Notes: generated by a model from the letters alone, not told the origin. A stretch of DNA of 64,000 nucleotides from an uncultured Actinomycetota bacterium (GCA_963824105.1 CAWGNN010000009.1:500279-564278); one strand, 5' to 3'. Counted from the first letter of the stretch, positions 15,082 through 64,000 are shown. Program-made: numbers and translations.

Positions 15082-16376
15082 GGGTGCACCTCGGCGATGG
15101 CTCCGACAATGGCCTTGCCGATCCTGGCCAGCTCCTCGCCGGAGGCGATGTACGGCGGCATGGAGTAGACCAGGTTGCGGAAGGGACGGACCCACACGCC
15201 ACGCTCGAGAGCGGCTCGGCTGACGGCCGGCCCGTCGACCTCGCGGTCAAGCTCCACCACACCGACGGCTCCGATACCTCGCACGTCGACCACTGAGGGG
15301 AGCTCTCGTGCCGGCGCGAGGGCGTCCAGCAGGGCGGAGCCGACCTTGGCGATCCTGCCCTCGGGGTCGCCGCTCTCCAGGAGGTCGATGCTGGCCGAGG
15401 CCACCGCACAGGCGAGCGGGTTGGCCATGAAGGTCGGGCCGTGCATCATCGCGCCCGCCGGGCTCGCGTCCACCGCCGCGGCGACTTCAGGGGTCGTGAG
15501 CACGGCCGCGAGGGTGAGGTAGCCCCCGGTCAGCGCCTTGCCCAGGCACAGGATGTCGGGCACGACGCCGCACCGGTCCAGTGCCCACCGGGTGCCGGTG
15601 CGCCAGAAGCCGGTCGCGATCTCGTCGAAGATGAGCAGAGCTCCGCTGTGCCGGGCCAGATCGGCCAGCACTCCCACGGCGTACGGGCTGTACACGTGCA
15701 TGCCGCCCGCGCCCTGCAGCACCGGCTCGCAGATGACGGCGGCGATCTCGTCGGCATGCGCGGCGAAGATCCTTCGCGTCTCGGCCTCCCAGGCAGCCAT
15801 CGCCGGATCCTCACCCGACATGTCGAGACCGCCCGGAGGTCGTGGCGCAAAGACGTTCTCCGGCACCAGCCCCTGGTACATCGCGTGCATCCCACCGTCG
15901 GGGTCGCACACGCTCATCGCGGCAAAGGTGTCGCCGTGGTAGCCGCCGCGGATGGTGAAGATCTTGTGGCGACCGCGGTCGGCGTGGGCCTGCCAGGCCA
16001 TCTTCAGCGCCACCTCGACCGCCACCGAACCCGAGTCGGCGAAGAACACATGCTGCAGCGGCTCGGGCGTCAGGTCGATGAGGCGTGCGGCCAGCTCCAC
16101 CCCCGGTCGGTGGGTCAGGCCGCCGAACATCACGTGGCTCATCCGGGCCAGCTGTCCGACCGCTGCCGCATCGAGCTCCGGTACGGCGTAGCCGTGGATC
16201 GCACACCACCACGAGGACATCGCGTCGATGACCTCGACCGGGCCCTCCGGGGTGCTGAGCCGGAGCCGGGCTCCCTTCGCGGACTCGACCGGGTATGCCG
16301 GACCCGGTGTCGTCATCGAGGCGTACGGGTGCCACAGGTGCTCCCGGTCGAATGCCGCCACAGTCGTCAGGTCCAT
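15078..16376 (-). CDS. bioA: adenosylmethionine-8-amino-7-oxononanoate aminotransferase
   Basis: HLWHPYASM, class-III aminotransferase motifs, LCLGKALTGG. Start at MDLTTV. Confidence 0.92.
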   Translation of the reverse strand: MDLTTVAAFDREHLWHPYASMTTPGPAYPVESAKGARLRLSTPEGPVEVIDAMSSWWCAIHGYAVPELDAAAVGQLARMSHVMFGGLTHRPGVELAARLIDLTPEPLQHVFFADSGSVAVEVALKMAWQAHADRGRHKIFTIRGGYHGDTFAAMSVCDPDGGMHAMYQGLVPENVFAPRPPGGLDMSGEDPAMAAWEAETRRIFAAHADEIAAVICEPVLQGAGGMHVYSPYAVGVLADLARHSGALLIFDEIATGFWRTGTRWALDRCGVVPDILCLGKALTGGYLTLAAVLTTPEVAAAVDASPAGAMMHGPTFMANPLACAVASASIDLLESGDPEGRIAKVGSALLDALAPARELPSVVDVRGIGAVGVVELDREVDGPAVSRAALERGVWVRPFRNLVYSMPPYIASGEELARIGKAIVGAIAEVHP

Positions 16377-16380
16377 AGGG

Positions 16381-16578
16381 TCACTCCCAGGTGGAGGCCG
16401 ACACGTCGCCGTGCTCGACGCAGCGTGCCACCCACGAGTCGGGGGTGACCTGTACGACCATCCGGCGTCGGCACTGCACGCAGTATCGAGGCGGCTCCAG
16501 GCGCAGCCGGACCTTGCAGCCGGTGTGGTCACCGGCCATCGCGGGGTCTCCGCAGTGGCCGCAGAACTGCTCCATCAC
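16381..16578 (-). CDS. bsaP: small Cys-rich protein immediately downstream of bioB: biotin synthase auxiliary protein BsaP-like
   Basis: 65 aa with CGHCG...C...CVQC...C cysteine pattern. Sits between bioB and bioA, as for the actinobacterial Rv1590-type protein. Confidence 0.6.
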   Translation of the reverse strand: MMEQFCGHCGDPAMAGDHTGCKVRLRLEPPRYCVQCRRRMVVQVTPDSWVARCVEHGDVSASTWE

Positions 16579-17685: not shown

Positions 17686-18978
17686 GTGACCGATCGACAA
17701 GACCCCGGAGCGGCCCCCGGCGAGGCTCCCGGCGAGGCCCCCGGCGAGGCTCGTCGCATGCTGCGGCGCTGGCAGGAGACCTTGCGGGCCCGAGAGCGAG
17801 TCGAGGCCGAGGCCCGAGAGCGCACCTTGCGCGAGCTCCAGGCGCTGGAGTCCCGAGACCCCGGCAGCGCCGTTCCGCTGCCCGTCCCGCGCGGGGTCGA
17901 GGTGGCGGCGGGCTGGTCCTGGCGGCTGCTGGTGATCGCAGCCGCCGTCTACGGCGGCATCTGGCTGCTGGGCTTCCTGGCGCCGCTCACGGTTCCGCTG
18001 GCTGTCGCGATGCTGGTCGCCGCACTGGCCGCTCCCGCGGTCTCAGCGGTCTCGCAGGTGATGCCCCGTGGTGTGGCGGCGTTCCTCGTGGTCCTCAGCG
18101 GTCTGGTGCTCATCTTCGCGATGTTGACGTTGGCGGGGACCCAGGTGGCGACCGGGTCCACGGATCTGGCAAACCAGGTGAACGACGGTCTGGACGAAGT
18201 CTTGAACTGGCTGCAGTCGGGTCCTCTGCACCTGAGCGACGCGCAGATCAACAACTTCGTCACGAGCCTGCAGAACCTGGTGAAGAGCAGCTCGTCGAGC
18301 ATCGCGGGCGTTGCCGGCGGGGTCGGCGCCAAGCTCGGCGAGCTGGTCGCCGGCTTCTTCGTGGTGCTCTTCGCGACCTACTTCTTCTTGTCCGACGGAG
18401 ACCGGATCTGGTCGTGGCTCGTGCGGATCTTCCCCCGCGTCTCCCGCGCCGAGGTCGACTCCTCCGGCCGCGTGGCCTGGCGGTCACTCACCAAGTTCGT
18501 CCGGGCCACCGTGATCGTCGCGCTCACCGACTCGCTGGGCATCATGATCGTTGCGATGATCCTGCGGGTGCCGTTCATTGCGGCGATCGGCCTGCTGGTC
18601 TTCCTAGGTGCCTTCATCCCGCTTGTCGGGGCCACCATCTCGGGCTCGGTCGCCGTCTTGGTCGCCCTCGTGTCGCATGGGCCCCTGGCGGCCCTGTTGA
18701 TGCTGCTCGGGGTCGTGGCCGTCCAGCAGATCGAGGCCCATCTGCTGCAGCCGTTCTTGATGGGCCGCTTCGTCAGCGTGCACCCGCTCGGCATCATCCT
18801 GGCCATCGGGGTTGGCGTGCTGAGCGCAGGCATCGCGGGCGCGCTGATCGCGGTTCCGCTCGCGGCAGCGGGCAACGCCGTCGTGAATCATCTTGCCGAG
18901 ATCCACGAGGCCCAGGCCCAGGAAGCTCTTCAACGGGCTGCCGCGGAACAGGCCGAGTCGGTCACGGCCGAGGACTAG
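17686..18978 (+). CDS. AI-2E family (PerM/UPF0118) transporter
   Basis: About 8 TM helices. [19 protein letters not shown] and [13 protein letters not shown] family motifs. GTG start. Confidence 0.8.
17713..17748 (+). repeat. 3 x 12-bp in-frame tandem repeat (APGE)3 in the transporter N-terminus
   Basis: gcccccggcgag gctcccggcgag gcccccggcgag, read directly. Confidence 0.85.
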
Positions 18979-19062
18979 CCGGCAGGAATGGCCGGTAGGA
19001 AAGACTTGAAGGAAGAATTGGCAGGACAGATTGATAGGAAGAAGAGGACCGGGAGCCACGCC

Positions 19063-20274
19063 ATGACCATCCCCACGCTCGCCGAGATCCGGGCAGCGCG
19101 CGACCTGCTCGCCGGCGTCGCGACCGTGACCCCGATACAAGGCGCTCGCTGGCTGTCCGAGGCGGTCGGAGGCCCGGTCTGGATGAAGGCCGAGAACCTC
19201 CAGCGGGCCGGCTCGTTCAAGATCCGCGGCGCCTTCACGCGAATCTCCGGCCTCAGTGAGGCTGAGCGGGCACGCGGAGTGGTTGCGGCCAGCGCGGGCA
19301 ACCACGCTCAAGGCGTGGCGCTGGCGGCGTCACTGCTCGGCATCAAGGCCACTGTGTTCATGCCGGAGGGTGCTCCCATCCCCAAGGTGAAGGCGACTCG
19401 CGGCTACGGCGCTGAAGTGATCTTCCATGGGTCCACCATCGACGAAGCCCTGGTGATGGCGCAGGAGCTGAGCGATCGGGAGGGTGCGGTCCTGGTACAC
19501 CCGTTCGATCACAAGGACATCGTCGCCGGGCAGGGCACCTGTGGCCTGGAGCTGATCGAGCAGCGGCCGGATCTGCGGACCGTAGTCGTGCCGACCGGGG
19601 GTGGCGGTCTCGTCGGGGGGATGGCGATCGCCCTCAAGGGGATCAACCCCGACATCCGGGTGATCGGCGTCCAGGCCGAGGCAGCGGCCGCCTATCCCAA
19701 GTCACTGGCCGAAGGTCACCCGGTGGCGCTGACGGAGATGTCGACGATGGCAGACGGCATCGCGGTGGGCCGACCCGGCGTCATCCCCTTCGAGGCGGTC
19801 TCTCACCTGGTGGACGACGTCCTGACCGTGAGTGAGGAGGCAATCAGCCAGGCGCTGGTGTTGCTCCTCGAGCGCAACAAGCTGGTCGTCGAGCCCGCAG
19901 GGGCCGTGGCCGTGGCCGCGATCCGTGAGCATCCTGAGCTTTTCGAGCCTCCGGTGGCTGCCGTCCTCTCCGGTGGCAACATCGACCCGCTGCTGCTGTT
20001 GCATGTGATCCGCCATGGGCTGGCGGCGGCCGGTCGGTATCTGGTCCTCGGCGTGCGGATCAATGACCGGCCCGGCGGCCTCGCCGATCTGCTCGCCGCC
20101 CTGGCGCGGACTCACGCCAACATCATCGACGTGATCCACGATCGGACCTCTCCACTGCTGCCGGTCCATGCGGTCGACGTGACCTTGCAGGTGGAGACGC
20201 GGGGCGCCGACCATGCGGAAGCCGTGGTGCGGCAGCTGCGGGGCGAGGGGTACGAGGTCAGTCAGCCGGAGTAG
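19063..20274 (+). CDS. ilvA: threonine ammonia-lyase (short form with one ACT-like domain)
   Basis: ENLQRAGSFKIRGA PLP-Lys motif, SAGNHAQG, C-terminal regulatory domain. Start at MTIPTL. Confidence 0.9.
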   Translation: MTIPTLAEIRAARDLLAGVATVTPIQGARWLSEAVGGPVWMKAENLQRAGSFKIRGAFTRISGLSEAERARGVVAASAGNHAQGVALAASLLGIKATVFMPEGAPIPKVKATRGYGAEVIFHGSTIDEALVMAQELSDREGAVLVHPFDHKDIVAGQGTCGLELIEQRPDLRTVVVPTGGGGLVGGMAIALKGINPDIRVIGVQAEAAAAYPKSLAEGHPVALTEMSTMADGIAVGRPGVIPFEAVSHLVDDVLTVSEEAISQALVLLLERNKLVVEPAGAVAVAAIREHPELFEPPVAAVLSGGNIDPLLLLHVIRHGLAAAGRYLVLGVRINDRPGGLADLLAALARTHANIIDVIHDRTSPLLPVHAVDVTLQVETRGADHAEAVVRQLRGEGYEVSQPE

Positions 20275-20756
20275 GGCACCGCGTCGAGGATCTCGACGTG
20301 GATCTCCTTGCCGTTGGGCGCCTCGTAAGTCACGACGTCGCCCTTCTTGAATCCGATGATGGCCTTCCCCAGAGCACTCTGCGGCGAGTAGACCTCGAGG
20401 TCGGAGTGGGCCCCGGCCATCTCGCGTGCGCCGAGAAGGAAGACCTCTTCCTCGTCGTCCCCGACGAAACGGGTGGTCACCACCATGCCTGGCGTGATCT
20501 CGCCGGACTCGGACGCAGTGACGCCGATCTGGGCCTTCTCGAGCATCGCTTCAAGCTGTTTGATCCTGGCCTCGGTCTTGCCCTGCTCCTCGCGGGCCGC
20601 GTGGTAGCCGCCGTTCTCCTTGAGATCCCCCTCGTCACGGGCGGCGCTGATCCGGGAGATGATCTCCGAACGCACGGGTCCGCGCAGGTGCTCCAACTCG
20701 CCCTTGAGCTTGTCGAAGCCGTCCTGGGTCAGCCAGATCACGGTGTCGTCGGTCAC
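20262..20756 (-). CDS. greA: transcription elongation factor GreA
   Basis: AREEGDLKENGGYHAAREEQ coiled-coil motif plus the C-terminal FKBP-like domain. Confidence 0.95.
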   Translation of the reverse strand: MTDDTVIWLTQDGFDKLKGELEHLRGPVRSEIISRISAARDEGDLKENGGYHAAREEQGKTEARIKQLEAMLEKAQIGVTASESGEITPGMVVTTRFVGDDEEEVFLLGAREMAGAHSDLEVYSPQSALGKAIIGFKKGDVVTYEAPNGKEIHVEILDAVPYSG

Positions 20757-55120: not shown

Positions 55121-56197
55121 GTGGCACTCACGATCGGCATCGTCGGACTCCCCAATGCGGGCAAGTCGACCCTCTTCAACGCGCTGACGAAGAACAACGT
55201 CCTCGCGGCCAACTACCCCTTCGCGACCATCGAGCCCAACGTGGGGGTCGTGGCGCTGCCCGACCCCCGACTGGACAAGCTCGCCGGGATCTTCGGATCC
55301 GAGCGGATCATCCCTGCCACCGTGCAGTTCGTCGACATCGCCGGCATCGTCAAGGGGGCGTCGGAGGGCGAGGGGTTGGGCAACAAGTTCCTCTCCCACA
55401 TCCGCGAGTCGGACGCGATCTGTCAGGTCACCCGGGTCTTCCGCGACGAGGACGTCTCTCACGTCGAGGGCGAGGTGAACCCGGCCAGCGACATCACCAC
55501 CATCCAGACCGAGCTGATCCTCGCCGACCTGCAGACGCTGGAGAAGGCGATCCCTCGGCTGGAGAAGGAAGCCAAGGGTAGGAAGGAGATGGTCCCGGCG
55601 CTCGAGTCCGCCCAGGCAGCCAAGGACGCGCTGGAGGCGGGCACGCCGATCATCTCCACGACCATCGACCGCGCGCAGATCCGCGAACTGATGCTGCTGA
55701 CCGCAAAGCCCTACCTCTACGTCTTCAACTGCGACGCCGACGAGCTGGGCGACGATGAGCTCAAGTCGAGGATGCGCGAGCTGGTCGCTCCTGCCGAGGC
55801 GATCTTCCTCGACGCGAAGTTCGAGGCGGAGCTCGTCGAGCTCGACGACGAGAACGAGGCGCGGGAGATGCTCCACGAGCTCGGTGTCGAGGAGCCCGGC
55901 CTCGACGTGCTCGCCAGGGTCGGCTTCGACACCCTCGGCCTACAGACCTATCTCACCGCCGGCCCCAAAGAGTCCCGAGCGTGGCAGATCCACAAGGGCG
56001 ACACCGCACCCGAGGCAGCCGGCGTCATTCACACCGACTTCCAGAAGGGTTTCATCAAGGCCGAGATCGTCTCCTACAACGACCTGGTCTCAGCGGGTTC
56101 GATGGCGGCGGCGCGGGCGGCGGGCAAGGTGCGCATGGAGGGCAAGGACTACGTGATGGCCGACGGAGACATCGTAGAGTTCAGGTTCAACGTGTAG
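55121..56197 (+). CDS. ychF: redox-regulated ATPase YchF
   Basis: [31 protein letters not shown] domain, C-terminal [13 protein letters not shown] start preferred over the track TTG at 55112. Confidence 0.95.
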
Positions 56198-56629
56198 CGG
56201 TCAGTCCCGACCTGCTCCTCATCCACGAGGGGATCGGACTGCACGGTCACCTCGTCGGCGAGGGTGAGTTCGACCGACCCACCGAGGTATTCCTGCCAGA
56301 CATCGTTTACGACGTCTCGGCTCTGGGGGGACAGACTCTCCTCGGGTGCGACGCGGTCGCGGCTGCAATGCGGGCGCTCCGTGACCGAAATCCTGTCGCT
56401 CACCACGTGTCCAACATCGTCGTTGAGCAGTTCGATGGAGGCCGGGCGAGAGTACGGTCGAGGGGATTGGCCGCCATGGCCGACGGCTCGGCGGGTTCCG
56501 TCGTCTATCTCACGAGCTCGTTCGGTCAGGCGGTGACGGTTGGCGAATTTCTCGGCGCACAGTGCTGCCTCGTAGACAGCCGCTGACTCCGTCTGCCTGA
56601 CCGTGGACTCATCTTCGTAACCTGATGGG

Positions 56630-56683
56630 GTCGAGTTTCGTCACCGAGCAACGACTTCTGGGAAGAAGTAGCTGTTCTTCAGA
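56630..56683 (+). repeat. ychF-end-derived cassette boundary repeat R1
   Basis: GTCGAGTTTCGTCACCGAGCAACGACTTCTGGGAAGAAGTAGCTGTTCTTCAGA. In frame it reads VEFRHRATTSGKK*. Confidence 0.85.
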
Positions 56684-56689
56684 CATCCG

Positions 56690-57574
56690 ATGGAGGAAGT
56701 CATGGACGAGAGCCGGTTCGCGGTCGAAGGGGTCCAGGTCGGTCACTGGACGGACGACACCGGCCTGACCGGATGCACCGTGGTCGAGCTCCCCGTAGGG
56801 ACGACTGCTTCGTATGAGGCGCGCGGGGGAGCCCCTGCATCGCGAGAGCTGCTGCTCTTGGAGCCCGACAAGACGGTGCAGTCGGTCGACGCGGTCCTGC
56901 TCACTGGCGGGTCTGCTTTCGGTCTCGCCGCGGCCGACGGGGTGATGGAGCACTACCGGCTCCAGGGACGCGGCGTCCCCACCCCAGGCGGCCCCGTCCC
57001 GATCGTTCCCACCCTCGCGCTCTTCGATCTCGCGGTGGGTAACCCGTTGGCCCACCCAGACGCCGATGCCGGACGAGCGGCAGCCCAGTCCGTGCGAGCG
57101 CGGCAGGTCTTGCGGGGTCGAGTGGGAGCCGGGACGGGTGCGCAGGTGAGCCATTGGCGCGGCCCCGAGGGCCGACGGCCCGGAGGTCTGGCGTATGCCG
57201 AGCACCGCCTCGGCGACCTCGCGGTCGCCGTCTTGTGTGTCGTCAACGCCTTTGGTGACGTCGACGACGGCTCGTCTTCTGTGGTCTTCGATGCAGTTGC
57301 CGCCCTGGAGTCACCATTCGCCTTCGACCAGGGTCGAAGCCACACCACGATCGGGGTGGTCGTCACCAATGCGCGCCTGGACAAGGTGGGGTGCCGGATC
57401 GTCGCCCAAGGGGCTCACGACGGCCTCGCGCGCGCGTTGACGCCGCCTCACACCCGCTTCGACGGCGACGCCTTCGTGGCTGCCGCCACCGGCCAGGTCG
57501 ACGCCCCGGTCGACGCGGTGCGCCTGCTCGCTCTGGCCTGCGTCACCGACGCAGTGCGGTCGGTCGCCTCCTGA
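56690..57574 (+). CDS. P1/S58 family peptidase (DmpA-like L-aminopeptidase/D-esterase)
   Basis: TDDTGLTGCTVV, LLTGGSAFGL, VGAGTGA. Alternative start ATG 56702 behind GGAGGA. Confidence 0.8.
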   Translation: MEEVMDESRFAVEGVQVGHWTDDTGLTGCTVVELPVGTTASYEARGGAPASRELLLLEPDKTVQSVDAVLLTGGSAFGLAAADGVMEHYRLQGRGVPTPGGPVPIVPTLALFDLAVGNPLAHPDADAGRAAAQSVRARQVLRGRVGAGTGAQVSHWRGPEGRRPGGLAYAEHRLGDLAVAVLCVVNAFGDVDDGSSSVVFDAVAALESPFAFDQGRSHTTIGVVVTNARLDKVGCRIVAQGAHDGLARALTPPHTRFDGDAFVAAATGQVDAPVDAVRLLALACVTDAVRSVAS

Positions 57575-57713
57575 CATCCGGGTCCCCGCACGTCTGGACG
57601 CCGATCATCGCCGCACGCCCGGTCCTGTTGACCGCCTCGTTCGAGCAGTGGACGTGGATGGTGAGGAGCGCCAGCCACGTCGACGCATCCCACTGAGCGG
57701 GCGGAGGGGTCTC

Positions 57714-57768
57714 GTCGAGTTCGGTCACGGTGTGGCAACTTCCGGGGAAGAAGTAGCTCGGCTCTGAA
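57714..57768 (+). repeat. cassette boundary repeat R2
   Basis: GTCGAGTTCGGTCACGGTGTGGCAACTTCCGGGGAAGAAGTAGCTCGGCTCTGAA. Confidence 0.8.
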
Positions 57769-57793
57769 CGGGAACCGGAGTTTCAGTGGCGAT

Positions 57794-58528
57794 TCAGCTG
57801 CCGTGCAGCGCTACCGCGTCGAGCATCGCCCCGGCCGCGTCATCGTGCCGGCCCAGCGCGACGTTCAGGACGGTCGTGGCCGTCCAGGCGGGGTCGTCCC
57901 ACCGCTCGGGCGGGTTCTCCCGCCAGACCGACATCGAGTCGGTGAGCTCGGTCCGCACGAGCCCCGGCAGTACGTCGAGCGCCACCACGCCCGTGCCGGC
58001 CAGCGAGCCCGCCAGTGTTTGGGTGAGCAGGGTCGCTGCCCGCTTGCCTACCGCATAGCCGGTGTATGTGCCCGACAGTGCTGCTGCCCGCGCCTCGCTC
58101 GCGATGGTGACCACCCGACCGCGGCCGCGCGCCACCATGTCGCCGAGCACGATCGCGTCCAACAGCAGGGGCCCGCGCAGGCACGTCTCGACCACCGACC
58201 AGGTGACCGCGGGGTCTACTTCCCACAGCGGCACTGCCTCGGGCTCGATCGCCGCAGCCGAGTGCACCAGGAGGTCGGTTGGCCCGTACTCCGAGCGCAC
58301 CCTTGACAGTGCCGCGGCGGTCTCCTCCAGGCTGGTGATGTCGCAGGGAACGGCGAATGCCAGCGGGCCGAGCGCGCTCGCGGCTTCGTCCAGCACGTCG
58401 GCCCTTCGGCCGAGGAGTGCGACGCGCATTCCGGCCTCAACCAAGGAGCGGGCCACTGCCAGGCCGATGCCGGTGCCGCCGCCGGTGACCAGACCGACCT
58501 GGTCGGCCAGGGGAGTGCTGTCGTCCAT
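57794..58528 (-). CDS. SDR family oxidoreductase
   Basis: VTGGGTGIGLA cofactor motif, YAVGKRA (YxxxK). Start at MDDSTP. Confidence 0.85.
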   Translation of the reverse strand: MDDSTPLADQVGLVTGGGTGIGLAVARSLVEAGMRVALLGRRADVLDEAASALGPLAFAVPCDITSLEETAAALSRVRSEYGPTDLLVHSAAAIEPEAVPLWEVDPAVTWSVVETCLRGPLLLDAIVLGDMVARGRGRVVTIASEARAAALSGTYTGYAVGKRAATLLTQTLAGSLAGTGVVALDVLPGLVRTELTDSMSVWRENPPERWDDPAWTATTVLNVALGRHDDAAGAMLDAVALHGS

Positions 58529-58635
58529 GGTCCCGAGCCTAGGGCGCGTCCTTGGAGCCACGCTCACGAGCACATGGTGATTGCAGCTGACCGCTGGATG
58601 GATGAGCTCGCGTCGCTGAGCGGAGACCAGGCGTG

Positions 58636-58691
58636 GTCGAGTTCCGGCACGGAGCAACATCGTCTGGGAAGAAGTAGCTGTGCCTCCTGCA
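58636..58691 (+). repeat. cassette boundary repeat R3
   Basis: GTCGAGTTCCGGCACGGAGCAACATCGTCTGGGAAGAAGTAGCTGTGCCTCCTGCA. In frame it reads VEFRHGATSSGKK*. Confidence 0.85.
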
Positions 58692-58753
58692 TCGGCTCAC
58701 TTCGCGAAGCGTGCGCGTCCGAAGCGCGAGCACGCTGTCCGGGGCCCCGCAGG

Positions 58754-59647
58754 TCACGGCGCACAGGCCCCGGAACCGAGTTTGGCGAGCCCGGTGAGGT
58801 CGCCGGCACCGTAGTTGGTCTGTCCGCGCGACTCCGGGAACATGATCTGGGAAGGATCCTGAACATGACCGAGACCAAGGACATGCCCTAGTTCGTGCAT
58901 GACCACCGCTTGCTCGGCCTGCGTGTGATGTTGCGCGCTTTCCTGGTCGAACCAACTGCTCAGAAGAGCGATCTGTCCGGTGACATAGTGCGGTTGGTTG
59001 GCGCCGTTCACCACGAGAAGCTCGCTGCCGCCGAGCCCGACCGTATCGGCGTTGGCACTTGCGCTGTCCAGGGTCGTGGGGAAGCTGATGAGCACCGGCT
59101 TTGGGACAACCGCATTCTTGCGTTCGGCCCAGGTGTCTGCTGTGAGTCCGTCGTAGACGAATTCAAGGCCGCTCGCGGCTTGGGTCTTCTTCACCGCGGG
59201 CTGGATGAAGGAGAGAAAGTCTGGTGGGGCTCCGCCGGGGTTGATGACGTAGTGAATGGGCTTGCACGGGTCGTAGGTCACCGGGTCGCCTGCTGAGTCC
59301 GTGTTCTCAATCGAGTAGTTCAACGACGACACCGTCGGCGTGACGACGGGAAGAAGACGATTCGGCCGTCCGATGATGCCGATCGCCTCGGCAAGAGGCT
59401 TGATCGGACCGGGGTTCACAAGTACCAAGGCAACAACAACGCCCCCGAGTCCGACCGCAGTGGCCGTGGCGATGCCCAGTCGGCGAAGACGGCCCCGCCG
59501 GTTCCGATACCGGAGGGCGGCTCGCTCTGCCGTGGCCGCGCGAGCAGCGGACTCAGCTGTCTGGCGCGTGACCCCGGTCCAGCGGGTGCCGTCGTGCCAC
59601 CGCTCCCCATCCCCCTGAGGGTCGGGATGCCAACCCCGCTCAGTCAC
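58754..59647 (-). CDS. membrane-anchored metzincin (matrixin-like Zn protease) with N-terminal DUF2510 motif
   Basis: GWHPDPQGDGERWHDGTRWT (DUF2510), one TM helix, HELGHVLGLGH zinc motif. GTG start at 59647. Confidence 0.75.
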   Translation of the reverse strand: MTERGWHPDPQGDGERWHDGTRWTGVTRQTAESAARAATAERAALRYRNRRGRLRRLGIATATAVGLGGVVVALVLVNPGPIKPLAEAIGIIGRPNRLLPVVTPTVSSLNYSIENTDSAGDPVTYDPCKPIHYVINPGGAPPDFLSFIQPAVKKTQAASGLEFVYDGLTADTWAERKNAVVPKPVLISFPTTLDSASANADTVGLGGSELLVVNGANQPHYVTGQIALLSSWFDQESAQHHTQAEQAVVMHELGHVLGLGHVQDPSQIMFPESRGQTNYGAGDLTGLAKLGSGACAP

Positions 59648-59742
59648 ACGTAGCCCTCCTGTCCACCCGTGTCCACGTGATCCGGTCGCAAGGGTAGACC
59701 TCCGCCTGAGCCCGGACCTCTGAGTGGACGCGAGGGAAGCCG

Positions 59743-59798
59743 ATCGAGTTCCGTCACGGAGCAACAACGTCTGGGAAGAAGTAACTGGGCTCTGAGCA
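59743..59798 (+). repeat. cassette boundary repeat R4
   Basis: ATCGAGTTCCGTCACGGAGCAACAACGTCTGGGAAGAAGTAACTGGGCTCTGAGCA. In frame it reads IEFRHGATTSGKK*. Confidence 0.85.
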
Positions 59799-59838
59799 TC
59801 CGCTCGAGCCGATGTGAATGAAGTCGTAGGCTCACCGG

Positions 59839-60261
59839 GTGAGCGATGTTCTGGACACGGGGCCGTTCTTCCACGGGACCAAAGCGGACCTGAGGGTGGG
59901 CGAACTTCTGGCGGCGGGCTTCCGATCGAACTATCGACCCGAAGTGTCGATGAACCACATCTACTTCACAGCTTTGCTGGACGGTGCTGGGCTTGCTGCG
60001 GAGCTCGCCGTGGAGCTCGCCGGCGGCGACGGGATCCCACGCGTCTACCTCGTTGAGCCGACCGGAGCGTTCGAGAACGACCCCAACGTGACCGACAAGA
60101 AGTTCCCCGGGAACCCAACCCGGTCCTACCGCAGCCGAGAACCGCTCAGGATCATCGACGAGGTGACTGACTGGAAGCGCCTCACCCCTGACGAGCTCCA
60201 AGCATGGCGTGAGCGACTGGCGGTTCTCCTGGGGGAAGAAGGCGGAGAGATCATCAACTGA
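59839..60261 (+). CDS. arr: rifampin ADP-ribosyltransferase
   Basis: GPFFHGTKADL, GFRSNY, HIYFTALLD, VYLVEPTGAFENDPNVTDKKFPGNPTRSYRSREPLRII is near-colinear with Arr-2/Arr-ms as I remember them. Confidence 0.88.
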   Translation: MSDVLDTGPFFHGTKADLRVGELLAAGFRSNYRPEVSMNHIYFTALLDGAGLAAELAVELAGGDGIPRVYLVEPTGAFENDPNVTDKKFPGNPTRSYRSREPLRIIDEVTDWKRLTPDELQAWRERLAVLLGEEGGEIIN

Positions 60262-60298
60262 CCCACCGTCCAGTCATGCCTGCGGGCACGTGAACGTG

Positions 60299-60340
60299 GT
60301 CGAGTTCCGCTTCGACGTCTCGACCTGGGGAGGGCGCAGA
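60299..60340 (+). repeat. cassette boundary repeat R5 (ychF-terminus type)
   Basis: GTCGAGTTCCGCTTCGACGTCTCGACCTGGGGAGGGCGCAGA begins with VEFRFDV and is followed by CATCGG as in R1/R3/R4. Confidence 0.75.
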
Positions 60341-60384
60341 CATCGGAGTGTGACGCGTGATGCGCATCGCGCTACACTCGGCTA

Positions 60385-60663
60385 GTGATCAGGTCGTTCA
60401 AACACAAGGGCTTGCGGGACTTGTTCACGAAGGGCAAGGCGACGGGTGTTCAACCGGCACATGCGCGGCGCCTCAGGATGCAGTTGGCGGCGCTTCACAC
60501 GGCCAGCAGTATCGATGACATGGACATTCCCGGATACCGCTTACATCCGCTCAAGGGTGCGGGCCGGGGGCGTTGGTCGATCACGGTCAATGGCAACTGG
60601 AGGGTGACCTTCGAGTTCCGCGACGGGGACGCCTACGTTCTAGATTACGAGGACTATCACTGA
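60385..60663 (+). CDS. higB: HigB-type (RelE/ParE superfamily) toxin
   Basis: IRSFKHKGLRDLF...HPLKG...WSITVNGNWRVTFEF...V.LDYEDYH is canonical for the HigB killer protein. Confidence 0.88.
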   Translation: MIRSFKHKGLRDLFTKGKATGVQPAHARRLRMQLAALHTASSIDDMDIPGYRLHPLKGAGRGRWSITVNGNWRVTFEFRDGDAYVLDYEDYH

Positions 60664-60968
60664 TGACGACCACGATGCAGATGTACGACCCGCCGCATCC
60701 GGGCGAGTTCATCACGGAGACGTATCTGACTCCCTTTGGTATCAGCGGGCGGTTGTTGGCTACCCACCTCGGGGTCTCGGCGTCGACGCTGGCGCGTGTG
60801 CTCAACGGGTCCAGTCGTGTCACCCCAGAGATGGCCCTCCGATTGGGCCGGGTGATTGGACGCTCGCCCGAGAGCTGGCTAGCCATGCAGGACGCCTATG
60901 ACCTCTGGGAGGCGCGTCCGAAGGTCGACGTCTCGACGCTCGCTCCGGTCAAGTTCGCCGTCTCCTAG
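60663..60968 (+). CDS. higA: HigA antitoxin (XRE-family HTH)
   Basis: PPHPGEFITETYL...LATHLGVSASTLARVLNG...TPEMALRL. 1-nt overlap with the higB stop. Confidence 0.88.
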   Translation: MTTTMQMYDPPHPGEFITETYLTPFGISGRLLATHLGVSASTLARVLNGSSRVTPEMALRLGRVIGRSPESWLAMQDAYDLWEARPKVDVSTLAPVKFAVS

Positions 60969-61016
60969 GTGTCCCGACGGCGTGGCGAAGGAGAGACAGT
61001 TACGGCGCTGAAGCGG

Positions 61017-61060
61017 GTGGAGTTCCGCTTCAACGCGTGGGTCTTCTGCTGGGACGTCCG
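61017..61060 (+). repeat. cassette boundary repeat R6 (ychF-terminus type)
   Basis: GTGGAGTTCCGCTTCAACGCGTGGGTCTTCTGCTGGGACGTCCG begins with VEFRFNA, versus resident VEFRFNV*. Confidence 0.75.
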
Positions 61061-61104
61061 GTCGCCTAGCCTCACTGGGTCAGATCCACAGAAAGGCCGG
61101 TCCG

Positions 61105-61446
61105 ATGAGCGATGAACAGGTGCCGGAGACCAGAGGTGTCGAGGCAGAGTTGTTGGCCGCGATTGACCTCGGCCCCGAGATCGAGGGTATGGACGGCTTC
61201 CAGCTTCGGATGCGGAGGTTCACGTTCGCGCCGGGCGCGGTATTCGGCCCTCTCCACGACCACGCCGGCAGACCGGGAACGGTCTTTGTGCTGCAGGGGA
61301 CGATCACCGACCATCGGGACGGGATCGCCACGGACTACGGTCCGGGCCTGGGCTGGCCCGAGGACCGGAACACCGTCCATTGGCTCGAGAACCGTGGGTC
61401 GGTTTCTGCGGTGGAGATCTCGGTCGACGTCCTCGGGCAGCAGTAA
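61105..61446 (+). CDS. cupin domain protein
   Basis: 113 aa, GPLHDH...G...H.LEN cupin motifs. Confidence 0.7.
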   Translation: MSDEQVPETRGVEAELLAAIDLGPEIEGMDGFQLRMRRFTFAPGAVFGPLHDHAGRPGTVFVLQGTITDHRDGIATDYGPGLGWPEDRNTVHWLENRGSVSAVEISVDVLGQQ

Positions 61447-61505
61447 GCGCTGCCCGAGAACCTCCCGTTTCCTGGTGTGACGCTCCTTCACAACACCATT
61501 CGGCG

Positions 61506-61552
61506 GAGGTCCGCCTCAACGCTTTGTGTCGGCGCCCAAGAAGTAGGTCAGG
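61506..61552 (+). repeat. degenerate cassette boundary repeat R6b
   Basis: GAGGTCCGCCTCAACGCTTTGTGTCGGCGCCCAAGAAGTAGGTCAGG keeps the (T)CCGC(T)TCAACGC and AAGAAGTAG blocks. Confidence 0.5.
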
Positions 61553-61561
61553 GCCGGCGGC

Positions 61562-61876
61562 TTAGCCGGCCACGCGCTGCTTGAGGGCATGGAGCAGGTC
61601 CTGAAGCGCTGGGACGTTCCGCAGACCATCTGGGGTCTGATACACCCGGCATGCCAGCGAGCCCTGGGTCCCAGTGGTTTGGAAGAGATCGGCTCCGTCG
61701 ACGACGAACGCCGGCGATCCCCCGAACCCCCGGGCCCGTGCCGCGTCCTCGGTTTCGATGACCCCCACGGTGAAGGTCGCGTCCGTGAGCCCGACGTCGT
61801 CCAGCGCGACGCGGAGCAGCTCCGAGGCATCCTCGGCGCCGGGGCACCCCGGGATCACCAGTAGTTGAATGTCCAC
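61562..61876 (-). CDS. thioredoxin/glutaredoxin-fold small protein (monothiol CPGA motif)
   Basis: IQLLVIPGCPGAE...FGGSPAFVVDG pattern of the thioredoxin-like family. GTG start. Confidence 0.6.
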   Translation of the reverse strand: MDIQLLVIPGCPGAEDASELLRVALDDVGLTDATFTVGVIETEDAARARGFGGSPAFVVDGADLFQTTGTQGSLACRVYQTPDGLRNVPALQDLLHALKQRVAG

Positions 61877-61942
61877 GCTGCCATCGTGACCCGCGAGTCA
61901 ATGTCTTGAGGTCGGGCGGGTATAGGGAACCGGTGGCGACGA

Positions 61943-61995
61943 ATTCGAGTTCGGTCCGGGCACCGACTTCGGGGAAGACGTAGCCTCTCGCCTGA
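61943..61995 (+). repeat. cassette boundary repeat R7
   Basis: ATTCGAGTTCGGTCCGGGCACCGACTTCGGGGAAGACGTAGCCTCTCGCCTGA. Confidence 0.7.
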
Positions 61996-62040: not shown

Positions 62041-62553
62041 GTGAGTCAGCAGCAGATCGTCGTCATGGGCGTCTCGGGCAGTGGCAAGTCGACGACTGGC
62101 GAGAGGCTTGCGCGGGCTCTGGGATGGTCGTTCGCCGAGGGGGACGACTTCCACCCCGAGGAGAACGTGCGCAAGATGGCAGAGGGCCGTGCCTTGACCG
62201 ACGAGGATCGATGGCCCTGGTTGTTGGCAATCCGTGCCTGGATGACGAGGGAAGATCTTGCTGGCCGCGACAGCGTTGTCTCCTGCTCGGCGTTGAGACG
62301 TGCCTACCGAGACGTGTTGCGGCAGGGGCCGAGTCGTGTGACGTTCGCCTATCTCGAAGTTTCCGAGGAGGCTCTCAGAGCTCGTCTCGCTGGGCGCACC
62401 GGGCACTTCATGCCGGAATCGTTGCTCGACTCTCAGCTGAACACTCTCGAAGTCCCCGGGGAGGACGAGGGTGCCGTGGTCGTGAACGGAAACCAGACAC
62501 CAGCGGAGATCGTCGCGGACATCCTGTCCGCGTTGCACCAGCAAGAAGCCTGA
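62041..62553 (+). CDS. gntK: gluconokinase (GntK/IdnK family)
   Basis: VVMGVSGSGKST P-loop, FAEGDDFHPEENVRKM, LTDEDRWPWL, SCSALRRAYRD. Confidence 0.88.
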   Translation: MSQQQIVVMGVSGSGKSTTGERLARALGWSFAEGDDFHPEENVRKMAEGRALTDEDRWPWLLAIRAWMTREDLAGRDSVVSCSALRRAYRDVLRQGPSRVTFAYLEVSEEALRARLAGRTGHFMPESLLDSQLNTLEVPGEDEGAVVVNGNQTPAEIVADILSALHQQEA

Positions 62554-62784
62554 CTCCGGAAGCGACTCACGCCGGGCTGACCCCCCGCCCATGGCGAGTT
62601 CGACTCGGGCGTGGATCGCGCCGCCACCCGGGCACGAAAGCAGCCAGCTCTCCCTACGTGCTCAAGCATCGCGGCGTGGGGCACCTTGCCCGAGTCGAGA
62701 GTTGTATGCGTTTGTGTACGCCCGTCGCGGTTTCGGCTCCTCACTGAGCGTGGGCGCACGCTACCGTTCCGACATACTGACGTG

Positions 62785-63117
62785 ATGGCGCTTCCCGAGA
62801 CCGATCTCCACCGCATCCACGTCTGGGCTCGTGAGCGCGTCCCCGAGCACCTGTGGGATCAAGTCAAGGTCGAGGCTGATGTCTCCGACCGCTACGTCGA
62901 CATCGTCGAGGTGCGCCCCCCGTGGGACGGCGTCGGCCAGCACACTCGGTTCCCGATCGCACGGCTGCGCTACACGAAGTCGACCGGACTGTGGGCGATC
63001 TACTGGCGCGATCGCCACCTCAAGTTCCACGAGTACAAGCGCAAGCGCCCGACCAAGAACGTCCAGGCTCTCCTGGACCACATCGAGACCAGCGGCGATC
63101 CGATCTTCTGGGGGTAG
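62785..63117 (+). CDS. DUF3024 domain protein
   Basis: VDIVEVRPPWDG...FPIARLRYTKSTGLWAIYWRDRHLKFHEY is typical of DUF3024. Confidence 0.65.
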   Translation: MALPETDLHRIHVWARERVPEHLWDQVKVEADVSDRYVDIVEVRPPWDGVGQHTRFPIARLRYTKSTGLWAIYWRDRHLKFHEYKRKRPTKNVQALLDHIETSGDPIFWG

Positions 63118-63140: not shown

Positions 63141-63165
63141 TATAATGGAGGATAATCTCAGTTAT

Positions 63166-63750
63166 ATGAGAACCGAGGCACCGCTTCTCGCTCCGATCTT
63201 CCGGTCGGACGGTCAGGCGCGCCTGCTCTCCACTTTGTTGCTGACCGGCGACGAACTGAGCGTCACCGATCTGGCCAAACGGGCCGACCTGGCTTATCCG
63301 ACCGCGCACCGCGAGGTGGCGCGCCTGGTGGACGCCGGCATCCTCAGCGAGCGACAGGTGGGCCGCACAAGGTTGATCCGCGCCAACCGCGAGAGCCCGC
63401 TCGTGGACCCCTTGCGCGAGATCCTCACGGTCGCGACCGGCCCGGTCGTGCTCCTGGCCGAGGAGCTTGCCAGCCTCGACGGGATCGAGTCGGCGTTCCT
63501 CTACGGCTCCTTCGCCGCGCGGATGCTCGGGGATGCCGGTCCGGCGCCGCACGACATCGACGTCATGGTGCTCGGTGAGCCCGACGTGGACGCGATCTAC
63601 GAGGCGTGCGCCCGGATCGAGGCGGCCGTGCACCGTCCAGTGAACCCGACGATCCTCACTCCTGAGGAGTTCGCCGCGCCCTCCGCCTTCCTGGACAACG
63701 TGCGCAGCGGCCCGGCGGTCGCTGTGATCGGGGAGCTGCCGTGGCTCTGA
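63166..63750 (+). CDS. winged-helix (ArsR/MarR-like) + minimal nucleotidyltransferase (MNT-type antitoxin-like) protein
   Basis: LSVTDLAKRADLAYPTAHREVARLVDAGIL wHTH. LYGSFAAR...HDIDVMVLG matches the GS..D.D NTase motif. Confidence 0.65.
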   Translation: MRTEAPLLAPIFRSDGQARLLSTLLLTGDELSVTDLAKRADLAYPTAHREVARLVDAGILSERQVGRTRLIRANRESPLVDPLREILTVATGPVVLLAEELASLDGIESAFLYGSFAARMLGDAGPAPHDIDVMVLGEPDVDAIYEACARIEAAVHRPVNPTILTPEEFAAPSAFLDNVRSGPAVAVIGELPWL

Positions 63751-64000
63751 CTCCGCTCACCCGCGTCCAGCAGGCGACGGTCCTCGCGTTGGTAGAGGCG
63801 CGACGTCTCGATGTCGCGCCCGCGGACATCTCGCGTGCGACCTCGTTCCTGCGCCAGGCCGAGGAACGCCTGAACCAGTTGCCGCTGCTCACCAGTGTCG
63901 CCATCAGGTACGGCATTGCCTACGACGCCTGTCACGACACGGGGGAGGCGCTGCTGGCGGCGTACGGCTTCCGGACGACCAACGGGCCCGGCCAGCACGA
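63741..64000 (+). CDS. HEPN-like partner protein (N-terminal part; runs off the window)
   Basis: Not in the ORF track. GTG 63741 overlaps the upstream stop by 10 nt. Open frame VALTPLTRVQQATVLALVEARRLD...IAYDACHDTGEALLAAYGFRTTNGPGQH. The helical pattern resembles HEPN toxins paired with MNTs. Confidence 0.45.
   Translation, partial: MALTPLTRVQQATVLALVEARRLDVAPADISRATSFLRQAEERLNQLPLLTSVAIRYGIAYDACHDTGEALLAAYGFRTTNGPGQH

Follow-up and report, generated by a model that had tools for sequence, protein, structure and literature searches.

How does a series of short, unrelated genes come to be lined up behind a housekeeping gene, with a copy of that gene's last codons between each unit and the next? 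A 64,000-nucleotide stretch of DNA from an uncultured Actinomycetota bacterium (GCA_963824105.1 CAWGNN010000009.1:500279-564278), referred to here at its full length as the window, raises this question: downstream of ychF, which encodes the YchF/OLA1 ATPase (55121-56197, + strand; Pfam MMR_HSR1 and YchF-GTPase_C), at least eight direct repeats derived from the ychF 3' end delimit an array of small gene units. We consider it likely that this array is an accretion (composite) island, formed by serial site-specific integration of small circular units into the last codons of ychF as docking gene. Serial site-specific capture at the ychF terminus had already been put forward in an earlier note on this DNA, and it is still the best reading. 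The target is ychF, the same process has taken place in many other genomes, and recombinases of two classes, serine and tyrosine, are associated with such sites elsewhere; the enzyme behind this particular array, the order of proximal insertion and the present mobility of the cassettes are what we infer from these comparisons.

Copies of the ychF 3' end in the window

The resident gene ends in GTAGAGTTCAGGTTCAACGTGTAG (VEFRFNV-stop; 56174-56197, + strand), as determined from the sequence and by comparison with relatives. Behind it, all direct and on the + strand, follow the repeats R1 (56630-56689), R2 (57714-57768), R3 (58636-58695), R4 (59743-59802), R5 (60299-60345), R6 (61017-61060), R6b (61503-61552) and R7 (61945-61995), which bears out the series of repeats, and their origin from the ychF 3' end, that the earlier note had reported. 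Each is an attachment (att) site that copies the ychF 3' end. R1 consists of a core, GTCGAGTTTCG, a tail of the kind that we call type A, VEFRHRATTSGKK-stop, and a distal motif, CAGACATCGG, that it has in common with R5; R2 has a 1-nt indel in its type-A tail; and the tails of R3 and R4 are VEFRHGATSSGKK-stop and IEFRHGATTSGKK-stop, respectively. R5 and R6 are of a native-like type, reading VEFRFDV (no stop) and VEFRFNA. Translated in the frame of ychF, R1, R3 and R4 yield V/IEFRH[GR]AT[TS]SGKK followed by a TAG or TAA stop codon, and R5 and R6 yield VEFRFD/N, the canonical YchF end minus its stop. The remaining copies are degenerate: R6b (GCGGAGGTCCGCCTCAACG ... CCAAGAAGTAGG) is a weak match with 3-4 mismatches, and R7 is a type-A copy with an E value of 0.003. 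A possible further copy at 62586-62640 (+ strand; CGAGTTCGACTCGGGC..., similar to R7), which would form the boundary of the last unit, comes from an alignment by eye without statistical support, and a type-D arm profile gave nothing significant for a left edge of the distal unit near this position. Decay of the att sites thus runs roughly from proximal to distal, with the tails of R1, R3 and R4 intact and R6b, R7 and the copy near 62.6 kb degenerate, a gradient that fits insertion at the live ychF end.

The repeats form a genuine family, although a less uniform one than it looks: R1, R3 and R4, estimated by eye in the earlier note to be 85-90% identical, share 71-78% pairwise identity over 68 nt. 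A 23-nt consensus, allowing up to three mismatches, matches only R1, R3 and R4 in the 64 kb (none expected from shuffled sequences), the motif TCTGGGAAGAAGTAGCT matches only R1, R2, R3, R4 and R7 in the window (0.03 matches expected), the block GGGAAGAAGTAGCT is likewise confined to R1-R4 and R7 within the 64-kb window, and the native-type ychF-end pattern finds in the window the resident end, R5, R6, R6b and one chance site. We also used a profile made solely from att sites in unrelated metagenomes (see below), containing no window sequence. Its six best matches in the window were R3 (the top match, E 1e-6), R4, R1, R5, the resident ychF end and R2; R6 and R7 scored weakly. Since a profile built only from metagenomes recovers the window sites, the family is real and not circularly defined.

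Between the repeats lie units of 0.45-1.1 kb, each with a single intact gene or toxin-antitoxin pair and no more than 30-140 nt of spacer. In order, they encode an S58 (DmpA-like) peptidase (56690-57574, +; PF03576), a short-chain dehydrogenase (57794-58528, -; Pfam adh_short), a DUF2510 protein with a matrixin-type metallopeptidase domain (58754-59647, -; Pfam), the rifampin ADP-ribosyltransferase Arr (59839-60261, +; PF12120, E 1e-46), a HigB toxin (60385-60663, +) with its HigA helix-turn-helix antitoxin (60663-60968, +; Pfam and gene calls for both), a cupin (61105-61446, +; Pfam Cupin_2), a 104-residue open reading frame (ORF) without Pfam match (61562-61876, -; gene call in L202-L206) and an AAA_33/SKI-family, gluconokinase-like kinase (62041-62553, +; Pfam and gene call). 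Here and below, L numbers denote the loci compared; L202 is an ENA contig that is 99.94% identical to the window and reaches beyond position 64000, and on which ychF, the dehydrogenase and the metallopeptidase are also called as genes. The statement in the earlier note that one gene or toxin-antitoxin pair lies between consecutive repeats is supported; the interval between the ychF end and R1, unit 0 (56198-56629), has no convincing gene and no Pfam match. Pfam confirmed all of the cargo named in the note except for the 'thioredoxin-like' product of 61562-61876. An 84/85-residue minus-strand ORF at 56149-56403, which overlaps the last 49 nt of ychF and is called as a gene in L202, matches no family and is probably spurious.

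One gene per unit, a toxin-antitoxin module next to a resistance gene, and anchorage at a fixed site are also features of a classical integron, or of a cluster of attC sites lacking integron-integrases (CALIN), in which attC cassettes are captured by IntI at attI. This likeness, drawn in the earlier note, is one of layout only. Relative to shuffles, the folding energies lie at z +0.12 to -1.76, for either strand of R1, R3 and R4 and for the top strand of R5 and R6, so that there is no excess hairpin potential and the repeats are, as had been noted, not attC-like; they are instead direct copies of a coding 3' end, each a replacement C-terminus that is translated when proximal. No IntI or other tyrosine recombinase was found in the window (tblastn with the L015 integrase; Pfam on the array ORFs), and the genes face in both directions. 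We regard an integron as very improbable. Much the same can be said of XerCD/dif-type (pdif-like) modules moved by the host Xer recombinases, a second resemblance that did not survive scrutiny: such modules are small, carry toxin-antitoxin and resistance genes in either orientation and have no dedicated recombinase nearby, but the sites in the window are all direct, approximately 45-60 nt long and derived from ychF rather than alternating 28-bp XerC-spacer-XerD sites (no formal dif-motif search was made), and the same att types stand beside dedicated serine or tyrosine recombinases in relatives. This origin, too, is highly unlikely.

According to the mechanism that we favour, integration would take place at a shared core, GTNGAGTTCCG. 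The right arm of the incoming unit's att site would be a replacement 3' end for ychF, which would leave the gene intact with a new C-terminus, and the previous end would be pushed distally together with the older units, so that the array would read from the youngest unit, next to ychF, to the oldest. The latter would be a DUF3024/MNT unit, closed off by a long conserved arm and, behind it, the original ychF end. Units of the window, being without a recombinase, would either be mobilised in trans, in the manner of psi-SCC elements (pseudo-staphylococcal cassette chromosome elements) or of cis-mobilizable elements (CIMEs), or be fixed by now. The resident end GTAGAGTTCAGGTTCAACGTGTAG contains the codons GTA and AGG, where ychF in 80 related species, chiefly Nocardioidaceae, mostly has GTG/GTC and CGC; its variant TTCAGGTTYAAYGT is the resident or a displaced end in L037, L047, L072, L079, L146 and L153. 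The newest insertion is the probable source of this resident end.

The distal end of the island and tyrosine-integrase elements

The distal end of the array lies past the window and was followed on L202. Of the look-ups by exact protein used to reach beyond the window, one led only to a 2.7-kb contig and that with Arr to a 185-kb contig; the exact product of the window's ychF returned no record. The distal unit comprises a DUF3024 gene (62785-63117), an MNT-type nucleotidyltransferase gene (63145-63750) and a gene for a 152-residue partner (63741 onward, past the window), all on the + strand and identified by Pfam and L202 gene calls. Directly after the partner gene, L202 carries a conserved arm of about 150 nt (nhmmer E 1.4e-32; L202 14367-14502, equivalent to window positions 64205-64340), and this is followed by a displaced, degenerate original ychF end, GTTGCGCGTCAACGTGTGA (window-equivalent 64341-64359), beyond which ordinary genes resume. 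The island thus ends approximately 360 nt past the window and measures about 8.2 kb as a whole. A PhdYeFM/ParE toxin-antitoxin pair lies about 4 kb past the island (L202 18172-18893), among ordinary metabolic genes.

The arm defines a second class of displaced ychF ends in Nocardioidaceae, with its boundary at GTTCCGCTTCAACGT and preceded by a sharply bounded, conserved, noncoding stretch of about 150 nt (GGTCCGCAAATAGTCCGCAAGAAGTCC...GCGTTTCCGCAGGTCAGACC...), in which the motifs GTCCGCA and CGCAGGTCAG stand out. It was found in L003 (13237-13381), L005 (15792-15933), L014 (20236-20380), L019 (15449-15584 and 17128-17272), L029 (20535-20679), L049 (15165-15309), L050 (18295-18438) and L202, always just upstream of a displaced ychF end and with unrelated cargo to its left. 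In L015, the motifs GCGTTT[GC]CGCAGGTCAG and GTCCGCA follow the ychF stop codon, as matching motifs do in many loci, and the island that begins with them carries genes for a tyrosine integrase (PF00589) and for a TrwC relaxase; homologous integrases adjoin ychF in L008, L020, L038, L050 and, as a remnant, L055. Through these shared motifs, the distal DUF3024/MNT unit is linked to tyrosine-integrase elements at ychF, with which it appears to share its att arm, and the 150-nt arm is probably an arm of the tyrosine-integrase attP, that is, putative protein-binding DNA. A structured RNA was also considered for the arm and rejected, with a consensus fold of only -9.7 kcal/mol, a single compensatory pair and no Rfam match; neither the window, the array included, nor seven related loci showed a match to a known RNA family.

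Taken together, the sequence places what looks like a unit of the tyrosine-integrase type beside the original ychF end, with about nine smaller units inserted between it and ychF. Its cargo has relatives at the same site: the MNT pair of the window is 85% identical at the amino acid level to the pair in a 4.2-kb insert in L049, and DUF3024 directly follows ychF in L044, which by YchF identity (84%) ranks among the two closest relatives. Tyrosine-integrase elements also stack in tandem at ychF, since a single ychF island in L050 holds two integrase copies (15922-16551 and 18518-19385) with an IS5-like transposase between them, the second directly after the displaced ychF end. In L014, two perfect copies of a 26-nt sequence from the DUF3024 3' end (GCGGCGACCCGATCTTCTGGGGGTAG) are present, one at 18999-19024, where it closes the gene within the island, and the other at 20440-20465, immediately beyond the displaced ychF end; the arrangement resembles a tandem pair of units of the same element type, with most of the outer unit deleted.

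The array is present in seven independent assemblies of this organism, L202 included, at 99.7-100% identity, and is therefore not an assembly artefact. One of the related contigs, L203 (metagenome-assembled genome (MAG) contig CAYVUN010000111.1), carries at 1-439 unrelated sequence with Sel1-like repeats to the left of window position 56960, inside the S58 gene; this may be an assembly chimera, which is what it looks like, or a real rearrangement that disrupts the first cassette.

Displaced ychF ends and recombinases in other genomes

Among the 80 related loci, ychF ends in VEFRFNV-stop in 73; other ends include FGSTSTSKK-stop in L054 and RTGLTSGSKK-stop in Propioniferax innocua (L078). A displaced VEFRFNV-stop lies 365-9900 nt downstream of ychF in about 20 of the 80, and in L039, L046, L054, L071 and L072 the insert is small, of the size of a toxin-antitoxin module, with the displaced native end 365-1081 nt downstream. 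Such small inserts include modules of the Phd/YefM and HigBA types; the HigBA cassettes of the window and of L072 are 33-49% identical at the amino acid level, which gives no evidence of recent shared transfer between the two.

To this we added a metagenome scan with an IUPAC pattern over the six type-A tails then known, which by its design preselects type-A tails. It returned at least 120 contigs with such a tail, and the loci taken from it (L082-L201) are contigs without taxonomy. In most of them, among the matches listed, ychF itself ends in VEFR[ST]GLTSGGKK-stop and a displaced native end lies downstream. Where the pattern left the sequence free, the first, second and third codon positions of the tail have entropies of 0.51, 0.33 and 1.27 bits, respectively, and its serine codons alternate between TCT and AGC; this codon periodicity and codon switching imply that the tail is translated and selected as a peptide, not only as a DNA-binding site. 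R[ST]GLTSGGKK-stop, as supplied by the elements in these loci, is a constrained alternative C-terminus of YchF, a conserved ribosome-associated ATPase. Many of the type-A sites in L082-L201 lie 30-150 nt, often about 50 nt, from a contig end, because repeated or hypervariable sequence disrupts assembly; with short-read assemblies breaking at the ychF 3' end, islands of this kind are likely to be under-represented in MAGs. A scan of viral contigs gave no match to the type-A site.

These loci also bear on another alternative, a generic repeat of the repetitive extragenic palindrome (REP) or miniature inverted-repeat transposable element (MITE) kind, or a duplication by homologous recombination, in which no site-specific recombinase takes part. 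It would account for the existence of repeats and for nothing further. The genome-wide REP/MITE that the earlier note had considered is not what we find: in the 80 related loci, the core motif [AG]TNGARTTY[CA]G occurs on the + strand 17 times downstream of ychF and not once upstream, and in 603 kb downstream of type-A ends in the metagenome loci it occurs, among the matches listed, 100 times on the + and 21 times on the - strand. Nearly all of the + strand matches in the metagenome loci read VEFRFNV-stop or another type-A tail, and those that read VEFRFNV-stop indicate a native end that had been displaced. Neither the rest of the 64 kb nor the additional 6 kb of L202 contains another copy of the repeat, in 200 other loci copies lie only downstream of ychF and on its strand, and the cargo between copies is unrelated. 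We give this alternative practically no weight.

Site-specific integration at ychF calls for an enzyme, and large serine recombinases are found beside type-A sites. Behind the new ychF end of L078 come, in this order, a type I restriction-modification system, a truncated and frameshifted large serine recombinase, a second copy of the tail, a 0.7-kb zinc-ribbon cassette and finally the displaced native end. Intact recombinases with PF00239 and PF07508 domains are encoded in units that follow type-A ends in L097, L100, L152, L153, L133/L192/L088/L146 and L160/L117/L105/L126, and the units that bear them in relatives carry D5-type primase-helicases or restriction-modification systems. For the element with both primase and recombinase, the two junctions are clean, with an attL that reads ychF...GTGGAGTTCCG and then the type-A tail, and an attR that reads ...CGCCGTAACCCG-GTGGAGTTCCG-CTTCAACGTCTGA. 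L160 and L097 each have an internal att copy at a distance of 25-42 nt upstream of the start codon of the recombinase, and the sites of L097, directly beside its recombinase, are of the RHG[AP]T subtype, as in the window. By the tails that they encode, R1-R4 and R7 appear to belong to the att family with the tail VEFRxGxTSGGKK-stop, which is associated with large serine recombinases. The nearest annotated serine integrases are those of actinophages (Microbacterium phages), at 44% identity or less, with only distant plasmid matches, and no ychF-like site was found beside the Microbacterium phage integrase genes. By eye, an ACGTC motif in attP looks shifted outward by 5 bp, an impression on which we base no claim, the dyad test being unconvincing. 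Integration at ychF by large serine recombinases has been reported for pipolins in Actinomycetota (Mateo-Caceres et al., NAR 2024, PMC11551731).

Are the small units cassettes, or what is left of larger elements? In the metagenomes, the unit families F0, F2, F5, F8 and F10 recur with boundaries that run from att to att at different positions of the array. F0 (approximately 965 nt) is the first unit in six contigs and the second in L107, F8 (1185 nt) is alone in two contigs and the first of at least four units in L191, F10 (653 nt) stands before a further unit in L103 and before the native end in L143, and F2 precedes two different recombinase-bearing elements. Among 21 distinct small metagenome units, 14 are co-oriented with ychF and eight consist of a single + strand ORF whose start codon overlaps the stop codon of the tail (RTGA), which suggests that translation of the cargo may be coupled to that of ychF. 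R1, R3 and R4 of the window lack this overlap. It is seen in the first unit after ychF in L087, L095, L098, L112, L126, L130 and L187, in the second in L107, and also at 11089 in L078. The F0 cassette (L087, L101, L110, L163, L170 and L182) encodes a DUF6414 protein, and other recurrent small cassettes encode a zinc-ribbon membrane protein or proteins without family. Cargo next to ychF often consists of restriction-modification systems (types I and III), a composition that suggests a defence-island role.

Alternatively, each unit might be a fossil, once a full-size integrative element (phage-like, integrative and mobilizable (IME) or pipolin-like) from which deletions left a single gene; the cassettes would then never have been mobile as small units, and the integron-like look would be the product of decay and of selection for useful genes. 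Decay of this kind can be seen, in the 120-nt integrase remnant inside the 2-kb insert of L055, in the broken recombinase of L078 and in L014, where merely the 3' end of a second DUF3024 copy is retained, and the seven assemblies show no movement. Yet all units of the window hold an intact gene or toxin-antitoxin pair with only the short spacers given above, the array contains no recombinase remnants, recombinase-less units of identical extent (F0, F8 and F10) stand beside different neighbours in metagenomes, and a start codon that overlaps the tail's stop in eight of 21 small units is a design that random deletion would not be expected to produce. We therefore think it unlikely that the units are purely fossils, and rate mobilisation in trans, of at least some of them, above decay alone. 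It is in other organisms that modularity has been observed, and for the window's own units we infer it by extension.

Weight of the accretion reading and relation to known systems

Several observations weigh against serial accretion as we have described it. The window and the 6 kb that follow it encode neither a serine nor a tyrosine recombinase, and searches for remnants in the array yielded noise only, even at E values up to 5. With the L015 integrase as query, tblastn over the window gave a best E of 0.04 and no similarity to tyrosine recombinases, and Pfam found no integrase domain in the array ORFs, the upstream 55 kb not having been scanned ORF by ORF with Pfam; weak recombinase matches antisense to the S58 gene were dismissed, the queries being homologous and non-independent. 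The link to serine recombinases is by association, in other organisms without taxonomy, and such an enzyme is present in only nine of 44 metagenome loci with at least 6 kb of downstream sequence (among the matches listed). A test for dyad symmetry and half-sites on the reconstructed attP and attB was weak (10-11 of 26 positions). Where the boundary lies does not reveal the enzyme, since elements with a tyrosine integrase at ychF can have the same left boundary (L038). To our knowledge, attL is not a target of canonical serine integrases, so that repeated proximal insertion would need a relaxed specificity like that of the cassette chromosome recombinases (Ccr), which we assume. Of the cassette genes in the window, six are oriented with ychF and three face away from it. 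Finally, all seven assemblies have one and the same cassette order, and no movement was observed in this organism. The cassette-level polymorphism that the earlier note had looked to among close strains is thus absent from near-identical ones, and modularity is confined to other organisms. Its picture of a recombinase that could not be named has changed in part: the window indeed encodes none, of either class, but large serine recombinases stand beside the same att type in relatives, and the distal end is of a tyrosine-integrase type.

On balance, we still hold serial accretion to be likely. A broader and more tentative proposal, for which we would claim possibility rather than probability, is that the ychF 3' end is an unrecognised cassette platform of Actinomycetota. 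Single-gene cassettes, recombinase-less and often promoter-less, with an att site of about 60 bp that encodes a functional YchF C-terminus, would be captured and shuffled in trans by large serine recombinases, and the proximal cassette would be expressed through ychF, in many cases by RTGA overlap. If the small units are mobile as such, gene capture in the manner of integrons would have arisen a second time and independently, with serine (and tyrosine) recombinases and the last codons of a housekeeping gene in place of IntI and attC. We know of essentially no chromosomal integrons in Actinobacteria. There would then also be a simple rule for finding accessory, defence and resistance genes such as arr, namely to look downstream of ychF and to split the sequence at copies of the ychF end, as well as an explanation for assembly breaks at ychF. 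Given the constrained, element-encoded YchF tail, one may also ask if a conserved ribosome-associated ATPase is tuned by mobile elements, and the pairs of att site and recombinase could serve as new landing-pad systems based on serine integrases.

With integrons, the ychF array shares a fixed docking site, serial one-gene cassettes, toxin-antitoxin cassettes, a newest cassette that would be proximal and, in many relatives, a first cassette ORF predicted from the start/stop overlap to be expressed from the upstream gene; it differs in having no IntI, no attC hairpins, sites derived from coding sequence and genes in mixed orientation. While the principle of such an island is known from the SCCmec islands of staphylococci, we found no description of cassette arrays at ychF in the literature on ychF as attB or integration site, and a search for ychF together with attB, serine recombinase or integration site brought up a single relevant paper, on pipolins (PMC11551731). 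Pipolins have target gene, phylum, recombinase class and defence-type cargo in common with the elements at ychF; however, no piPolB or polymerase domain was found by Pfam in the array ORFs of the window, and related units carry a D5-type primase-helicase instead. In the available part of its text, the pipolin paper names ychF as a new site and describes no direct repeats, replacement C-termini or single-gene arrays (PMC11551731).

The tycheposons of Prochlorococcus integrate repeatedly at one site and push older elements further into the island, and their islands contain partial target copies between units as well as degenerate remnants; recombinases of the tyrosine and of the large serine class are both employed (Hackl et al., bioRxiv 10.1101/2020.12.28.424599). 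The ychF island parallels them in all of these respects: pushing of older units, partial target copies, degenerate remnants and both recombinase classes. Tycheposons differ in that they target tRNA or tmRNA genes, normally bring their own integrase and replication genes, and supply no replacement coding tail; the window contains neither a tRNA nor a tmRNA gene. Accretion has also been described for integrative and conjugative elements (ICEs) and CIMEs in Streptococcus thermophilus, where att-bounded elements without an integrase form tandem arrays with relatives that encode one, at a gene's 3' end. Such elements are matched by the distal DUF3024/MNT unit and by the inserts of the second class, in other hosts and at another target; the ychF arrays are longer and mix two recombinase classes.

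The closest known system, in our view, is the composite SCC island. SCC elements are moved by large serine recombinases, restore the reading frame of their target and have recombinase-less counterparts, psi-SCC and an ars module bounded by direct repeats. At rlmH (orfX), they insert into the 3' end of a housekeeping gene, with direct repeats of the terminal codons, tandem accretion and recombinase-less members (PMC7029136). The ychF island differs in target (ychF rather than rlmH) and phylum (Actinomycetota), and in the size of its units, which hold one gene in 0.45-1.1 kb compared with 3-60 kb for SCC. With about 60 bp, its att arm exceeds that of SCC in length, and the alternative C-terminus of 10 residues that this arm encodes is under purifying selection; a second, tyrosine-integrase class uses the same target. 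Large serine recombinases are absent from the window and L202 and present in the relatives L078, L097, L100, L133, L152, L153 and L160; these ychF-site enzymes are known by their PF00239 and PF07508 domains and a distant similarity to actinophage proteins, not as Ccr orthologues. What the two systems share is insertion at a gene's 3' end with the ORF restored by sequence from the element, as seen in the intact ychF of the window and in the replacement ends of L054, L078 and more than 100 metagenome contigs with a displaced native end downstream, together with direct repeats of the terminal codons at every junction of a tandem array and members without a recombinase in the same array.

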